From an uncultured cyanobacterium (lineage in GTDB: Bacteria; Cyanobacteriota; Cyanobacteriia; Phormidesmidales; Phormidesmidaceae), in contig CAWBZI010000001.1 in NCBI GenBank assembly GCA_963793265.1, forward strand, positions 1,120,001-1,184,000: a DNA stretch of 64,000 nt. Reading direction: 5' to 3'. How positions within the stretch are numbered: position 1 is the stretch's first letter; each line of letters begins with the position of its first letter. This document shows, piece by piece, positions 42,001-48,000 of the stretch. Made by a program: the position numbers.

Positions 42001-45000
42001 CTGCGACTGTCAGGTGTCTGTCCGCGCCAAACCCAAATCCCGATTACCGGGACTGAAACACAGTGCTATCAACGTCCGGACTAACGCTGGACAGCAGGCG
42101 CGCCAAACCCAAATCCCGATTACCGGGACTGAAACTTAGCATCGTCAGTGAGCAGTTCCGGCCAAGCCTGTTGCCGCGCCAAACCCAAATCCCGATTACC
42201 GGGACTGAAACATCTGAATCTATTAGACTGTATGTGCTAGGACTGTTAGCGCGCCAAACCCAAATCCCGATTACCGGGACTGAAACTAGACAGACTCGGA
42301 CTGGCTCAGCATCAGCAGCTATCGCGCCAAACCCAAATCCCGATTACCGGGACTGAAACAATCCGAATCACTTTATGCCCTGGGCGCATCTCTTGCCGCG
42401 CCAAACCCAAATCCCGATTACCGGGACTGAAACGGATCTCAGCAGATGGCATTACCGCTGGCCTAGCTACGCGCCAAACCCAAATCCCGATTACCGGGAC
42501 TGAAACACAAACGCAGACAAGCAGCTTAAAATCGCCTGCAAGCGCGCCAAACCCAAATCCCGATTACCGGGACTGAAACATTTGATTCGCTATAGTATCA
42601 GTCGGCAGGCTTTGATCCGCGCCAAACCCAAATCCCGATTACCGGGACTGAAACATTCGGACAATGCAGCTGATCATAACGAGCTCTAGATTCCGCGCCA
42701 AACCCAAATCCCGATTACCGGGACTGAAACGTGGGTGAGCGTTAGTCATCGCGAGAACGTTTCGATGCCGCGCCAAACCCAAATCCCGATTACCGGGACT
42801 GAAACTGTTCGGCGCTCCAATAACGACTGCCACGCTGACCGCACCCGCGCCAAACCCAAATCCCGATTACCGGGACTGAAACTCCTCTACGACCTCTTCT
42901 AGGGAGATGAGTCGGCTTCGCGCCAAACCCAAATCCCGATTACCGGGACTGAAACATCGACAGCAGCGGCACGATCGGACACATTTTCGATCGCGCCAAA
43001 CCCAAATCCCGATTACCGGGACTGAAACGTCTCAGCAGCATCGGCATTAGCCTCTAGTCTAGCTAGCGCGCCAAACCCAAATCCCGATTACCGGGACTGA
43101 AACGAGCTCTCCAAGATAGACGAGGCACACGACTCGACCCCCGCGCCAAACCCAAATCCCGATTACCGGGACTGAAACATCGCCTCTGCCACCGATAGAG
43201 TATTGCGAACATCCGCGCCAAACCCAAATCCCGATTACCGGGACTGAAACTCATGCGTTTACCTACAGCCGGTACGTATTAGACCTGTCGCGCCAAACCC
43301 AAATCCCGATTACCGGGACTGAAACACGTGCTGAGCTGACCGAGACAGGACGTAGCACTAGAGCGCGCCAAACCCAAATCCCGATTACCGGGACTGAAAC
43401 ACCTCATCCCAATCAGCAATGCAACTGACAGCCAAGGCCGCGCCAAACCCAAATCCCGATTACCGGGACTGAAACCTGCTGAAGGTGTTAGAGCTGAATG
43501 CGCGGGGCGGGCCTTCTGACGCGCCAAACCCAAATCCCGATTACCGGGACTGAAACGAATTAGACCGCTATGAAACAGTCATCCTGTCTAATCGCGCCAA
43601 ACCCAAATCCCGATTACCGGGACTGAAACCACATCGAAGGGCAGCGGCCCCGGTTCGTGAGCCCACGCGCCAAACCCAAATCCCGATTACCGGGACTGAA
43701 AATTTCAACTGCGCTATTGTATGGGGGTAGCAAACACACGCCAAACCCAAATCCTGATTACCGGGAGTAAGTCGATGAGCCCAGCTTTATCTAAAATGAT
43801 AAACGAGCTAAGTCAGCTCTCGCCTCAAGAACAGTGGACATTGTTAGGATACCTAACAAATCGGTTGCAAGACACTGTTCGCTTAGACGAAGCATCATCT
43901 AAGTTGAAACCTACAACGGAGATGGGGAATGCCCTTTCTATCTTCGAAGAGACTAGAGGAATGTGGGGCAGTAGCAGCCTGACATCAATAGATGACGAAC
44001 TCAGTAGACAAAGGCAAAACGACTGGGGAGAATGAGCCCGACATCGCAAAACTAATTTTTGATACTAATATCTTCATCTACCATTTCAACAATCAGCTAG
44101 GCGAGCTAGGAACCGATCTTCTTAAGCAAGGACTGCTGAACTCAGGCGCTTATTCAGTCATTTCAAAAATTGAGGTACTAGGCTTCAAGCAGTCCAAAGC
44201 TGATGATACGAAAGCTCGACAGTTTTTGTCTCAGCTCGTCGAACTACCGCTGACCGCCAAAGTTACAGAACGAACAATTTCAATTCGCCAGAATTTAAAG
44301 ATAAAAACGCCTGATGCCATCATTGCAGCTACAGCAATAGAGCACTCACACCGCCTAGTGACTCGCAACTCAAGTGACTCCAGCAAAATCGAGGATTTAG
44401 ACTGGCTGAATCCTTTCATAGAACAAGACCACTCGTAATTGTGATGAATTCGTGTGAAACATTTGACACATCAAAAATACTGCTGATACGCTGTATCTTA
44501 CGGTTGTTCTCGCAACAACCTAACGACCGTCTTGAAAAAACTAGCCATTGTCGGCGTTGGCTGGAACCCAACACCGACAACTAACCTCTGAACTGATTAG
44601 ACCAGTAAAGAGGCTGTGGGTATCATCCCACAGCCACCCTGGCGCTTGGCAAGTCGGAGTGGCTATTTTTTTCTGGGTTTTCTTCAACCACTCACCCGAA
44701 GAACCCATGAAAATCATGACTTTCACAGCCAATCAACCGCTACAAGCCCGTCCAACAGCTCACCCAGAAACTCGCCAAATTATTACCCAGGCCATCACTC
44801 AATCTGAGCCAACCACCGCCCTACAGCTTTCGTCAAACGGCACCGATCCCGGCGAATCTCTCCGGCATATTTTACTGGGTAGCCCCAGCGCTATCCAACA
44901 GACCATTCACCTACTCCACAAGCTTCACTACGCCGAAACCCTCTTGTGGACACCCATCCTCACCATCGAAGAACCGTTGAACATTACACCTGCGCAAGGC

Positions 45001-48000
45001 GAAGCAATCAGCCTGCTCAAAAAGCAAATATAGCCAAAGGTGCATTCGCAGGCTGGCTATAAAACAAACCAGCCTGCGAATACAAACAAATCTAAAACAG
45101 CACTTGACCTGAATACTCGCCCGACTGCCGAGCCCCGTCCGACTCCATATCAGAATACTCACGCGCTGACATCACCTGGCTAGCCACCAGTAGCATCAAC
45201 AGCAGCACAAACGGGATCGATACAAAATTAAACAACAACTTACACCAAGCTTCACTAAAAGAAGACTGATACACAGCGAAACCTCACGAGCAACGAAAAT
45301 TAGGAGCGAAGAGAAGACAAAGCGAAAAGACGAAGCGGCTCCCTTGTGTATTCATTCTCCATGTCATAGATGCCCATAGCCGGACGGTTAGTGACACAAC
45401 CAAAAGTGGTTTGTCACAAATCTTTCAAAAGGTATACGCACGAGGTCGTACAAACCGTACTCAAAGCTTGTTTTTGTATCAGCGGCCACTCTGACTAACA
45501 GCAACAACTTTTACGTATTAGCAGCTAAACGTAAAGGTATCAAGAACTGCATTCGATACCCTTGTATTCGCCCGATCGCGCTGTAAAATCCTTAATAGCT
45601 TGGAAAAAGGACTTGAAAATGCCACTTGACAAGGTTTCTACACTGCTCAGCAGCATCAGCTTAGGATGCTTACTCCTGACGGGCGCGCCTGCTAAGGCCC
45701 AATCAGCCACCATCCATCAGCTCGGCGTCCTCGACAGCGCCGATCCTCAGATGAGTGACGGCAGCTACTTCGACAGCTACGAAATTGCCGGAACCGCCGG
45801 AGAGCGCGTCACCATCTCGCTCAACAGCTCAGAATTCGACACCTTTCTAGGAATCTTAGACAGCGAAGACAATCTGTTAGCCAGCAACGACGACGCCAGC
45901 GACACCAACCGCAACTCATTTATTTCCCTAACCCTACCGGCCAACGGCATTTACACAGTCGTGACCACCACCTTTACCCCCTCAGCCAGCGGCGGCTACC
46001 GGCTCTCCATGCGCAACTTCAACGCGCCGCCCACTACTACTAGCACTACCCAAACCGCCTCATCCGGCCTATCCCCCGTCTTCAATCCCCTCGCCCTGCT
46101 CGCCATTGGGTTCGCACTCGACAGCTTCTTTGGCGGCGGCGGCGGCAGTGCTGATCCCTATCCCGACCCTAGCCAAGACCCGCTCTTACGAGACATGAAC
46201 CGACCCCAACGAAGCGCACCGCTGCCGCCACCCCGGCCCATCCCACCCGTAGGTGGCCCCTGCGGCCTGTATGGCAGCGGGCCTTGCTGAAGTAGTCCCA
46301 AAGCTATCGACGTTGCGAGCAGTATTCAGAGGCAATCATGATGCAGAATGCTGCTTGAGCACGTCTTTTAGATATTTGCCTGTGTAAGAAGCTTCCACCT
46401 CAGCGACTTCCTCGGGTGTGCCCTCAGCAATAATTTCGCCACCGCGATCGCCCCCCTCAGGCCCTAAGTCAATCACCCAGTCACAGCACCGAATCATATC
46501 CAAGTTGTGCTCAATCATAATCACCGAATTACCCTTATCCACTAGGCGCTGCACCACATCTAGCAGCTTGTGCACATCATAAAAAGAGAGTCCAGTCGTC
46601 GGCTCATCAATTAAATACAGCGTTTTACCCGTAGACCTGCGCGCCAGCTCGCTTGCCAGCTTCATCCGCTGCGCCTCACCACCTGAAAGCGTCGGCGCAG
46701 TTTGGCCCAGGCGCACATAGCCTAAGCCCACATCCACCATCGTCTGCAACCGGCTCGCCGCCTTCGGAATGTTCTCAAAAAAGGTCAGCGCCTCTTCAGC
46801 CGTGGTATGCAGCACATCCGAGATATTCTTCGCCTTGTACTTTACCTGAAGCGTCTCACGGTTGTAGCGCGCGCCCTTGCACACCTCACACTCCACATAC
46901 ACATCTGGTAAAAAGTTCATTTCAATGACATTCACACCCTGCCCGCCGCAGGCTTCACAGCGCCCGCCCTTCACATTGAACGAAAACTGCCCGCGCTTAT
47001 AGCCCCGCGCCTTCGCCTCAATTGTCTCGGTGTACAAATCGCGCACCACGTCAAAAATGCCGGTATACGTCGCCGGGTTAGAGCGTGGCGTCCGCCCAAT
47101 CGGAGACTGGTCGATCACAATTGCCTTGTCTAGCGCCTTGAGTCCTTTAATCGGCTCCATCTCTTTAGGCTCAGGAATTTTGCTGCCAAAGAAGTGACGA
47201 ATCGCCGGATACAACAGATCGTTAATTAACGTCGATTTGCCCGATCCCGACACGCCCGTAATGCAAACAAACTTGCCCAGCGGAATATCCACATCAACAT
47301 TCTGCAAGTTGTTGCGGTGCGCGTTGCGAATTTGAATACTGCGCCCGTTCCCTGCTCTGCGCTCAGTCGGCGTGGCAATCTTTTTACGCCCCGATAGATA
47401 TGCCCCGGTCAGCGATTCCTCCGAGTTCAAAATGTCTTCTAGCTGGCCTTGGGCGACAATATTGCCGCCGTGAATTCCCGCCCCAGGGCCAATATCCACA
47501 ATGTAGTCCGCCGCTCGCATGGTGTCTTCATCGTGCTCCACCACCACCAGCGTATTGCCCAGCTCCTTCAGCCGATCCAGCGTCTTCAGCAGGCGATCGT
47601 TGTCTCGTTGGTGCAAGCCAATGCTCGGCTCGTCAAGCACATACAGCACGCCGCTCAGGCCCGCGCCAATCTGCGTCGCCAGTCGAATCCGCTGCGCTTC
47701 GCCACCCGAAAGCGTTCGCGCCGTTCTGTCTAGCGTGAGGTAGTCCAGCCCGACATCAAGTAAAAAGGTCAGCCGCGCCTTAATCTCTTTGAGCACCAGT
47801 TCACCAATGGCAATTTGGCGGTTTGTTAGCTTAGGCGCTTCGCCATTTTCACCCACCAGCTCGAAGACGCGATCGCGACATTCCCGAATCGAAACGCTGG
47901 TAAAATCCTTAATGTTATAAGGCCCAATCTTCACCGCCAAAGACTCCGGCTTCAGCTTCGCCCCATGGCAGGTTTCGCAGGGCTGATCGATCAAATACTT

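Follow-up and report, generated by a model that had tools for sequence, protein, structure and literature searches.

A conserved multi-copy leader RNA coupled to an unnamed small-protein family in a cyanobacterial genome and its relatives

The genome of an uncultured cyanobacterium of the Phormidesmidaceae contains 24 paralogs of an unnamed small-protein family, 12 in subfamily A and 12 in subfamily B, and a conserved leader module is found 5' of 23 of them. The copy annotated below, a member of subfamily A, lies in a 64,000-nucleotide stretch of DNA (the window). Neither the RNA nor the protein is named by any library searched here. The preferred interpretation, which is given about an even chance of being correct, is a self-contained expression cassette in which several RNA locks act on a small, tightly repressed protein. 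Computation established the copies and the fold that they conserve, how strictly they are placed and oriented, the burial of the start site, the promoter motifs and the asymmetry between the strands.

In order, the module comprises a promoter close to consensus, the variable hairpin P1, P2 to P5 as a four-way junction that P0 closes, and then P6. Its features in the window are as follows.

44430..44451, plus strand: promoter-upstream block of the CGyAATTGTGAkGAtTTC type (subfamily A), from an alignment of the 12 A copies
44452..44469, plus strand: imperfect palindrome GTGTGAAA-ca-TTTGACAC, read from the sequence, its right arm containing the -35 box
44463-44468, plus strand: -35 box TTGACA, read from the sequence
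44484..44492, plus strand: extended -10 element TGnTACGCT, from the sequence and alignments
44500..44530, plus strand: P1, a variable 5' hairpin from the minimum-free-energy fold, differing in length and sequence among copies
44534-39 with 44668-73, plus strand: P0, the closing helix, with 5' strand GAAAAA, extendable through UAGCCA to 44547
44547..44581, plus strand: P2 hairpin, with 11 of 12 pairs changed on both sides
44584..44614, plus strand: P3, an outer helix and an inner 4-bp helix ACUG/CAGU, from covariation and fold
44615..44632, extendable to 44612-44635, plus strand: P4 hairpin with loop UAUCAU, a 9-nt inverted repeat, 100% complementary
44633-44663, plus strand: P5, a long hairpin from fold and covariation, followed by the U-run
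44666-44672, plus strand: U-run 3' of P5, doubling as the 3' strand of P0
44668..44713, plus strand: P6 hairpin, in which the U-run and GGGUUUUCUUC pair with GAAGAACCCAUGAAAA, from the fold and an inverted repeat
44707..45033, plus strand: ORF P0001, 108 aa, of the unnamed small-protein family
44622..44652, minus strand: promoter-like site with -35 TTGCCA at 44652..44647 (P5 loop) and a 19-nt spacer
44630..44622, minus strand: TGn and -10 GATGAT (P4 loop), part of the same promoter-like site

The paralogs were collected by an iterated phmmer/hmmsearch search of the 61,943 six-frame ORFs of the genome, whose rounds returned 17, 24 and 24 hits, with bit scores of 86-107 for the 12 subfamily A members and 68-77 for the 12 subfamily B members. 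This search reproduces the two subfamilies of 12 described in the survey's finding, and upstream sequences can indeed be aligned within each subfamily, here over 330 nt. All 24 copies are chromosomal. Two look degenerate: the paralog at C2:476301 starts with TTG and diverges at its C-terminus, and that at C4:698547 lacks both a start codon and a leader. The window copy adjoins a PIN-domain VapC-like gene and a CRISPR array. A covariance model, R1, built from the 12 subfamily A copies only, gives 19 sense hits in its own genome with default filters, 12 A and 7 B leaders, all 5' of paralogs and with no orphan RNA copy among them; with filters off, 11 of the 12 B leaders are recovered. The survey also counted 12 A leaders, but four B leaders.

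Proteins of the family are 80-120 aa long. Residues 1-45 of P0001 form a variable, polar N-terminus that is predicted to be disordered, and residues 50-108 a conserved domain that is predicted to be globular, with a strand-helix-strand arrangement; the protein is not hydrophobic. In a 61-sequence alignment G58, I67, Y75 and W81 are invariant, and R53, H54, L56, T66, L70, L73 and E77 are at least 90% conserved, positions that the previously proposed motif RHxLxG...LxYAE..W fits. Pfam and NCBIfam yielded no family at E<=1, in agreement with the survey, and there were no matches in PHROGs or PADLOC (family searches at E<=1 or E<=0.1). PDB profiles gave no match (best E-value 0.18), fold searches gave nothing above Z 2.9, which carries little weight by itself, and no ToxN/AbiQ-type, SymE, Rep or other toxin or defence family in Pfam, NCBIfam or PADLOC matched the protein. 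For the RNA, too, no Rfam 15 family was found: positions 43900-45500 of the window gave eight weak rows, all far below gathering score, and a search with twenty other module loci returned no more than two chance miRNA rows and a tRNA that lies outside the leader, with none on the leader.

In other Phormidesmidales genomes R1 matches 66 of 79 loci (E<=1e-8), always on the gene strand and directly 5' of the gene, and in 64 of the 66 the family ORF starts at -5 to +84 nt from the end of the hit. The model also detects the RNA in three further lineages, with strong covariation. Of 54 genomes in a follow-up, 34 were positive for the protein and 17 of these gave a hit, as against none of the 20 that were negative for it. 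Leader and protein subfamilies have diverged in parallel. Some copies are syntenic across genera, for example C6:362389 with L046, L062 and L038. It is conceivable that the RNA is instead an independent trans-acting small RNA gene with the downstream ORF as a separate passenger, as a strong promoter and a terminator would yield a separate RNA, about 175 nt long and paired at its ends, and one strong copy in another genome (54.9 bits) precedes an unrelated ORF, which leaves at least one RNA copy without the gene. However, all 19 sense hits in the RNA's own genome precede a family ORF, 64 of 66 copies elsewhere do the same with a short and constant spacing, and P6 joins the U-run of the RNA to the start codon of the ORF; this explanation is considered very unlikely.

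The fold of the leader is supported by covariation beyond the copies used for training. Among the 66 copies from other genomes, 92.1% of cells pair, versus 81.7% in shuffles (0 of 500 reach the observed value) and 34-51% with slid partners, and both-side changes occur in 30 of 47 pairs. In 35 rows from subfamily B and three other lineages, one reverse-strand row included, 84.4% pair versus 35-47% with slid partners, with both-side changes in 43 of 47 pairs; such counts overstate the number of independent events, because all copies are related by descent. The inner helix of P3 is 98.9% paired, with covariation in four of four pairs, and the outer P0 pair covaries (GC 36, CG 15, GU 7, AU 4, UA 4), within an inverted repeat that in the window joins 44534-47 to 44660-73 (14 nt, 93% complementary). 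Taken together, covariation outside the training set, sense position, protein-linked detection and blank libraries support the survey's proposal of a new RNA-plus-protein module.

A selfish repeated DNA element, MITE-like or a recombination site, whose hairpins act in DNA would also be multi-copy; the inverted repeat just described could be its flanks, and the strand-specific mismatches of P2 (see below) could in principle reflect single-stranded DNA hairpins. Such an element is nevertheless extremely improbable. The copies are old and diverged, with a mean identity per column of about 71% in the core, compensatory changes extend across six helices, position and orientation are fixed relative to one gene family, and no transposase or recombinase gene is common to the flanks.

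Loop and joining sequences are invariant in the large, conserved junction, and four complementary AGCC/GGYU tetramers permit two exclusive folds, which have a median energy difference of -1.7 kcal/mol and lie within 3 kcal/mol of each other in 36 of 65 leaders. These features would suit a ligand- or protein-sensing leader that works without any antisense RNA, in which the junction is an aptamer or a site for the encoded protein (autogenous control) and binding chooses between near-isoenergetic folds, and so between termination and start-site exposure. The strict cis linkage to one gene family and the parallel divergence of leader and protein subfamilies also fit. However, the tetramers hardly vary, so that covariation does not separate the two folds and both are candidates, and the conserved domain of P0001 is not basic (four K/R versus four acidic residues). 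Riboswitch classes usually govern metabolic or transport genes, and one small protein in 24 copies would be an atypical target. A sensing leader of this kind, which would also leave the minus-strand wobble bias of P2 unexplained, is judged unlikely.

Returning to the cassette of RNA locks, its expression would begin at a predicted transcription start near 44499. The palindrome over the -35 box that the survey described is present at 44452-44469, and the form TGTCAA-N4-TTGACA is common among other copies. Most of the 66 loci found elsewhere carry near-consensus TTGACA and TGnTAnGCT elements, 64 of these 66 leaders score at least 9 of 12 against TTGACA and the family's TACGCT with a spacing of 17-19 nt, and the GTGAGGATTC-type sequence of the promoter-upstream block recurs in many of them.

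P5 and the U-run (44633-44672) look like an intrinsic terminator, at which transcription would be expected to end. However, only subfamily A and two other lineages have a clean U-run behind P5, subfamily B and G017 have no more than UUU-type tails, and termination is therefore not universal; the survey's intrinsic terminator at the end of the leader is clean in subfamily A but not in subfamily B. The U-run may also be kept simply as a strand of P0. The leader is shorter than the 215-260 nt originally given, with about 175 nt from the predicted start to the U-run in the window and about 208 nt to the AUG. No conserved antiterminator was found. One candidate antiterminator helix was rejected, at -9.3 versus -8.9 kcal/mol in shuffles.

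The proposed anti-Shine-Dalgarno helix before the ORF corresponds to P6, which buries the ribosome-binding region, the AUG (44707) and codon 2. Across 63 homologous leaders the P6 region has a median fold z-score of -3.9, with z < -2 in 59, and 11.6 of 16 nt around the Shine-Dalgarno sequence and AUG are paired, versus 6.7 in shuffles. Codon 2 is AAA in 55 of the 63, and this AAA pairs with the U-run. The description of the module as riboregulated is thus consistent with its anatomy, namely the terminator-like P5 of subfamily A and the sequestration by P6.

A strand split of the wobble pairs, new in this analysis, separates P2 from P4 and P5. In the 66 copies, the non-Watson-Crick cells of P2 are A.C or C.A in 117 cases and G.U in 6, and the former become G.U on the minus strand only, whereas on the plus strand G.U exceeds A.C in P4 (39:7) and P5 (98:37). 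In the other lineages A.C prevails over G.U in P2 (38 vs 5) and outer P3 (44:0), and G.U over A.C in P4 (18 vs 6) and P5 (47:6). The motif TGnnAnnnT occurs in the P4 hairpin on the minus strand of 60 of 66 leaders, versus 4 of 66 on the plus strand, and the best minus-strand promoter site has its -10 in P4 in 62 of 66 (score 9.48 versus 7.56 in shuffles). Outside subfamily A the score is barely higher than in shuffles (7.81 versus 7.37), the best site falls in P4 in 23 of 34 leaders, and TAnnnT is also present on the plus strand in 22 of 34. Together with the promoter-like site, which would start transcription near 44613-44616, the wobble asymmetry suggests, as a hypothesis drawn from sequence patterns, a counter-transcript from the minus strand. 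This transcript would lack a good terminator, because the minus-strand U-run lies 5-7 nt or more past P2 and is missing in subfamily B. The A.C positions of P2 recur at fixed places across lineages, and they could instead belong to the plus-strand RNA, for example as sites of protein contact or as protonated A.C pairs.

As a cassette, the module might therefore work as follows. A strong housekeeping-type promoter would produce a long 5' leader that folds into a closed four-way junction, with P0 around P2-P5. In subfamily A most transcripts should stop at P5 and the U-run as an RNA of about 175 nt, since the U-run follows P5, and those that read through would be translationally silent because P6 pairs the U-run and anti-Shine-Dalgarno sequence with the ribosome-binding site, the AUG and the Lys-2 codon. 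From the minus-strand site, whose -10 and -35 lie in the loops of P4 and P5 respectively, a short counter-transcript probably runs through P3 and P2, and it would pair with the nascent leader and set the amount of message that escapes; a factor that opens the locks is presumed.

The distribution of the protein extends beyond that of the RNA. Ten relatives in a third subfamily lack the RNA and are preceded by a plain promoter, and the Nostocales copies examined have different upstream arrangements. Other lineages have a different small upstream partner, either an XRE-HTH gene or a 90-aa ORF (three of three copies in one genome), and relatives are found on 13 Nostocales plasmids, one of them next to ParG and a replication gene. 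These partners and plasmids are in keeping with a toxin-antitoxin-like pair or stable ribonucleoprotein, in which an abundant terminated RNA would neutralise or partner a putatively toxic protein translated from the few read-through transcripts, in the manner of type III systems; so are the ToxIN-like order of promoter, RNA, terminator and ORF in subfamily A, the multi-copy family with its degenerate copies, and the VapC-like and CRISPR neighbours of the window copy. However, the leader has no tandem repeats (Tandem Repeats Finder, minimum score 30, 44400-45100) and no direct-repeat families (44440-44720), toxin, defence and fold matches are absent from the searches above, and the cross-genus synteny of some copies is unlike typical mobile loci. 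With the RNA-less third subfamily and the Nostocales arrangements, the lack of repeats and of a toxin family match weakens the toxin-antitoxin reading as an obligate RNA-protein pair, and it is judged distinctly unlikely overall.

The closest parallels to the cassette of RNA locks can be sought among several known systems. In pT181 and pIP501, plasmid rep genes are controlled by counter-transcript-driven transcriptional attenuation, and the module resembles them in several ways: its sense promoter is strong, its leader is long and folded, a terminator-like hairpin and U-run stand just upstream of the ribosome-binding site, and a putative antisense promoter inside the leader would give rise to a two-hairpin RNA complementary to the leader's 5' half. 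It differs in that the controlled gene is no replication initiator (no Rep-family match), the cassettes are chromosomal and present in 24 copies, no pre-emptor (antiterminator) pairing was found among the candidates (the rejected helix and the two near-isoenergetic folds, whose segments are invariant), the antisense RNA is predicted only, and the RNA matches no Rfam family. Type I toxin-antitoxin systems such as hok/sok and symE/symR combine a cis-antisense RNA with a small toxic protein that is hydrophobic or SymE/AbrB-like. As in these, the start site is buried by pairing in the full-length message (P6), and the family is multi-copy on chromosomes and plasmids; a cis-antisense RNA gene may lie within the 5' leader, as the minus-strand promoter-like site and the wobble asymmetry suggest. 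However, the protein is 80-120 aa long, folds into a globular strand-helix-strand domain and lacks hydrophobic character, no match to SymE or another toxin family was found, and the predicted antisense RNA would leave the ribosome-binding site uncovered.

Type III systems (ToxIN, CptIN, TenpIN) have tandem direct repeats in the antitoxin RNA, a terminator before the toxin and a ToxN/AbiQ-type endoribonuclease. Subfamily A shares their order of promoter, non-coding RNA, intrinsic terminator and protein gene, from which an excess of RNA over protein message would be expected; here, however, the RNA is a single four-way junction without tandem repeats, no search relates the protein to ToxN, which is twice as large, and some family members lack the RNA. 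Riboswitches and autogenous leaders, finally, also place a conserved junction of several helices ahead of a terminator-like hairpin and an anti-Shine-Dalgarno helix, strictly in cis and sense to the controlled gene. In contrast to these, the module matches no Rfam family, its target is always the same small protein, and its wobble strand asymmetry suggests a second transcript.

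The module occupies 44417-45033, where some 250 nt of folded, non-coding sequence are found directly 5' of a 108-aa ORF on the plus strand. Its elements are as follows:

Leader, plus strand: palindrome spanning the TTGACA -35 box
Leader, plus strand: extended -10 element, TGnTACGCT
Leader, plus strand: P1, a variable hairpin
Leader, plus strand: P2, P3, P4 and P5, a four-arm junction closed by P0
Leader, plus strand: P0, GAAAAA paired with a U-run
Leader, plus strand: P6, the start-site hairpin and 3'-most element of the leader
44707..45033, plus strand: ORF of 108 aa, within the region 44417-45033

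Upstream, the module adjoins a VapC-like pair (43721-44438) in which a 104-aa ORF overlaps a 148-aa PIN-domain ORF (Pfam PIN, E 3.4e-11; the NCBIfam matches fall under the cut-off), and which looks like a type II toxin-antitoxin pair. A long CRISPR array (40532-43740), in which the 37-nt repeat CGCGCCAAACCCAAATCCCGATTACCGGGACTGAAAC recurs about 40 times with a period of 73-75 nt, ends just before this VapBC-like pair. The genes downstream of the module are unrelated, and a 13-bp perfect hairpin (ATTCGCAGGCTGG / CCAGCCTGCGAAT) at 45044-45081, 10 nt past the ORF stop codon and without a U-run, may be the 3' end or a stabiliser of the ORF or of the converging gene.

The survey's finding of 24 copies in this genome was reproduced by an iterated profile search of 61,943 six-frame ORFs, which converged on 24: 12 strong paralogs that make up subfamily A (86-107 bits) and 12 weaker ones that make up subfamily B (68-77 bits). 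A tblastn search with the window protein likewise detected many paralogous places, and RHxLxGS-x-A-x(3)-TI-x(2)-L-x(2)-L-x-YAE-x(3)-W is the core common to the translations. Two paralogs appear decayed: that at C2:476301-476663 has TTG in place of ATG and an aberrant, frameshift-like C-terminus, and that at C4:698547-698765 is a fragment of 73 aa that lacks both a start codon and a leader. The paralogs are dispersed and solitary, with varying flanking genes in either orientation; an all-against-all BLAST of the flanking ORFs gave scattered similarities only, with no operon partner shared by the 24 copies. Some copies are syntenic across genera (e.g. C6:362389 with loci L046, L062 and L038 of other genomes), which makes at least some of the family old and its inheritance stable. 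The reading as a selfish DNA repeat is given almost no credence.

The protein had been described as lacking a family, and Pfam and NCBIfam searches agree; PADLOC and PHROGs were also blank, and a profile search of the PDB gave a best E of only 0.18. All names given to the 111 relatives retrieved by a word-indexed protein search, which come from Phormidesmis, Leptolyngbya and further cyanobacterial records, are "hypothetical protein", and an ESM Atlas search returned nothing but unnamed cyanobacterial clusters. An exhaustive profile search detected 580 representative clusters at E<=0.001 and 157 at E<=1e-10, and the family comprises at least 580 clusters at 50% identity. Among 301 cyanobacterial genomes sampled, 35 carry it, often in many copies, and it is also present on 13 Nostocales plasmids; in Trichormus variabilis plasmid D, the family gene lies between ParG and a replication-related gene. 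Among 7,997 candidates, no longer protein containing the domain as a fusion was detected at E<=0.001, which is weak evidence against such fusions. In an AlphaFold2 model (61-row alignment, mean pLDDT 66.5), residues 1-45 are disordered and are followed by a compact domain (strand 51-58, helix 60-72, strand 100-107); the C-terminal domain blocks average 73-93. Neither Foldseek against the PDB (best E-value 1.8) nor VIA-align against 48,161 chains (best Z 2.9) found a convincing match for this model, and the weak fold-search rows pointing to an ACT-like or ferredoxin-like kinship were discounted as evidence.

As the survey had claimed, the upstream regions align within each subfamily, over 330 nt and with obvious compensatory changes, and the absence from Rfam 15 extends from the window leader to 20 other module loci. 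A covariance model (150 positions, 47 pairs) was built from the 12 subfamily A cores only and applied to 79 loci from other Phormidesmidales genomes, fetched through the protein. Once 20 weak reverse-strand rows had been removed by a re-run at E<=1e-8, a full-length sense-strand match was found right upstream of the gene in 66 of the 79 loci, at 45-142 bits. Cultured relatives with subfamily A include Leptolyngbya sp. BC1307 and Phormidesmis LEGE 11477. Across these 66 copies, 92.1% of cells pair, compared to 34-51% with slid partners, and 30 of the 47 pairs have changes on both sides. With filters off, the model also matches 11 of 12 subfamily B copies in this genome, as well as 14 of 15, 8 of 12 and 3 of 5 copies in three other sampled genomes (G017, G158 and G156, respectively); in 35 such distant rows, including one on the reverse strand, 84.4% of cells are paired and covariation is seen in 43 of 47 pairs. 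All leader copies are homologous, and these covariation counts are not independent events. The range of lineages covered and the controls with slid partners nonetheless make a chance origin implausible.

In this genome, each of the model's 19 sense matches lies 5' of a paralog, and a further match is a reverse-strand shadow of the window copy; among 54 other genomes, it matches 17 of the 34 that hold the protein and none of the 20 that lack it. The family ORF starts -5 to +84 nt after the leader match in 64 of 66 copies. Beside this close coupling, the possibility that the RNA acts as an independent small RNA is very slight. A type III-like RNA-protein pair or a ribonucleoprotein, either of which would unite the RNA with the protein encoded behind it, is somewhat less improbable, while still unlikely.

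The anti-Shine-Dalgarno helix proposed in the survey is borne out by P6, which pairs the U-run and the GGNUUUCUUCC stretch with GGAGAAnCC-AUG-AAA. In 63 leaders from other genomes, the median fold z of this segment is -3.9, with values below -2 relative to mononucleotide shuffles in 59, and 11.6 of 16 nt near the SD and AUG are paired, compared to 6.7 in shuffles. The second codon is AAA, which pairs with the U-run, in 55 of the 63, and a GF(P/L)...(R/E)KPxM pattern is found in the translated-through leaders of G017, G156 and G158 as well. An anti-anti-SD helix between the P5 3' strand (GGGUGG) and CCACC in the P6 loop was rejected, with -9.3 kcal/mol against -8.9 for shuffled tails and an advantage over shuffles in only 29 of 63 leaders.

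The intrinsic terminator claimed for the leader is retained in part: subfamily A, G156 and G158 have a clean U-run behind P5, and subfamily B and G017 lack one. The closed junction and the buried start are therefore taken as universal, and the terminator as lineage-specific. Two alternative folds involve four tetramers in the leader:

44543-46: tetramer 1, AGCC
44612-15: tetramer 2, GGCU
44632-35: tetramer 3, AGCC
44660-63: tetramer 4, GGCU

Pairing of the third with the fourth completes the terminator stem, and pairing of the first with the fourth and the second with the third extends P0 and P4; both extended helices were reported in the window by a repeat finder. Constrained folding of 65 leaders makes the two folds near-equal, with a median difference of -1.7 kcal/mol and a difference within 3 kcal/mol in 36, and covariation cannot choose between them because the tetramers barely vary.

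A plus-strand A.C opposition is a G.U pair on the minus strand, and the two types are distributed unevenly among the helices, a strand asymmetry that had previously gone unremarked.

Table. A.C and G.U oppositions by helix in 66 subfamily A copies and in 34 rows from other lineages.
P2: subfamily A, A.C/C.A 117, G.U 6 (with two positions unpaired in the model); other lineages, A.C 38, G.U 5
P3, outer: subfamily A, A.C 51, G.U 56; other lineages, A.C 44, G.U 0
P4: subfamily A, A.C 7, G.U 39; other lineages, A.C 6, G.U 18
P5: subfamily A, A.C 37, G.U 98; other lineages, A.C 6, G.U 47
P0: subfamily A, A.C 3, G.U 11; other lineages, A.C 5, G.U 11

Because the A.C/C.A bias amounts to minus-strand G.U pairing, P2 and, in most lineages, outer P3 look selected to pair in an RNA made from the minus strand; P4, P5, P0 and P6 look selected to pair in that of the plus strand. 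A minus-strand promoter-like site lies where the two halves meet:

44652..44647, minus strand: -35 element, followed by a 19-nt spacer
44630-29, minus strand: TG
44627..44622, minus strand: -10 element

In 60 of 66 subfamily A leaders, the minus strand of the P4 hairpin contains TGn plus nATnAT, compared to 4 of 66 for the plus strand, and in 62 of 66 the best minus-strand site combines a -10 in P4 with a -35 (TTGCCA) in the P5 loop, scoring 9.48 against 7.56 for shuffles. In other lineages, TAnnnT is found in the P4 loop in 32 of 34 rows on the minus strand (TACAAT, TAAAAT, TACAGT and similar) and in 22 of 34 on the plus strand; the minus-strand promoter signal outside subfamily A is weak, falling in P4 in 23 of 34 and scoring 7.81 against 7.37 for shuffles. 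A transcript started here would be complementary to P3 and P2, and we put the odds of such a counter-transcript at about even. No good minus-strand terminator was found beyond P2. A terminator at P2, flagged by a scan of the window, is doubtful, with a 5-7 nt gap before a U-run that subfamily B and G017 lack, and a divergent promoter from the left palindrome arm was discarded, the spacing being unfit for any -10-like hexamer. The A.C positions, which are fixed in place, could alternatively reflect a property of the sense RNA. We regard a leader that senses a ligand or a protein and operates without antisense RNA as unlikely, if the foremost of the alternatives.

The survey had conceded that some distant homologues are leaderless, and this is indeed the case: 10 of the 13 loci without a model match constitute a third subfamily with no folded leader, and the others include one that has lost most of the leader and two cut by contig ends. 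The third subfamily (motif RYVENALWSP; L084-L087, L090, L091, L096 and L098-L100, at about 1300-1750 in each) was not found in the window's genome. Its promoter is plain and conserved (TTGACATTTGTCCGC...GCGTGCAAT), and an XRE-HTH gene ends upstream in five loci (L090, L091, L098-L100). The upstream gene in L090 and L099 carries a DUF7662-HTH and is about 165 aa, and the convergent downstream gene in these two looks by eye like an ABC transporter.

Nostocales copies have arrangements that differ from the leader module. In the Nostocaceae-like genome G144 (L140-L142), each of the three family genes comes immediately after a conserved ORF (about 90 aa, MAEVL..GEKTGRIYFPALFLAEFH..), which has no Pfam match and may be a protein partner replacing the RNA. 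Plasmid D of Trichormus variabilis ATCC 29413 (L146) contains the two distant arms of a near-perfect inverted repeat (about 33 nt; 1254-1298 / 1579-1625); the 3' arm adjoins the start codon, and the repeat is a different means of start-site burial. The four copies in the 3.8-Mb genome G071 (L118-L121) share an AT-rich promoter block, a single hairpin (AAGUAAGGUGAUC...GAUCACCUUAC) and then ACCCC, a conserved upstream region of another kind that is missed by the covariance model. Finally, a strong leader copy in another genome (L144, 248-411, G002:C5:99097-99260; 54.9 bits) has an unrelated ORF, not a family gene, about 100 nt downstream, and is an orphan or re-used leader.

The reading we prefer, to which we give an even chance, is a cis-acting, multi-level RNA lock in which attenuation operates in subfamily A, the start site is occluded in all copies, and an antisense counter-transcript probably takes part. 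Such a lock would keep the small protein off until a signal, a processing event or a change in antisense level opened it. A harmful or addictive product would fit the heavy gating, the multi-copy and plasmid spread, the decayed copies and the exchange of the RNA for small protein partners in other lineages. A bolder possibility, which we consider improbable, is that the cassettes are RNA-controlled addiction or defence modules of a new class, in which leader, terminator and loop-promoter counter-transcript would silence a new small effector protein and an XRE-HTH protein or the 90-aa ORF would replace the lock elsewhere; the invariant R-H...Y-E...W residues would then be the effector active site.

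The gain is a class of large, structured RNAs that covary strongly, together with a protein family, both widespread in filamentous cyanobacteria. With 24 diverged copies in one genome, specificity and cross-talk are open to direct study, and the number of locks on a single small gene suggests a protein that is harmful or decisive when uncontrolled, making the family a good experimental candidate. If the counter-transcript is confirmed, two interacting RNAs would be compactly encoded in one 150-nt stretch, with the promoter hexamers of the opposite strand in hairpin loops. A full-text literature search found no description of the RNA or the protein. A recent 202-genome screen of cyanobacterial RNA structures (PMC12873609) was confined to the flanks of 931 KEGG-orthology gene groups, and would thus not have been anchored on this unannotated family. 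Neither the RNA nor the protein is named in Rfam, Pfam, NCBIfam, PADLOC, PHROGs or the PDB. The principles of control resemble known ones; what is new are the components and the way in which an antisense promoter appears to be nested within loops of the sense-RNA hairpins.
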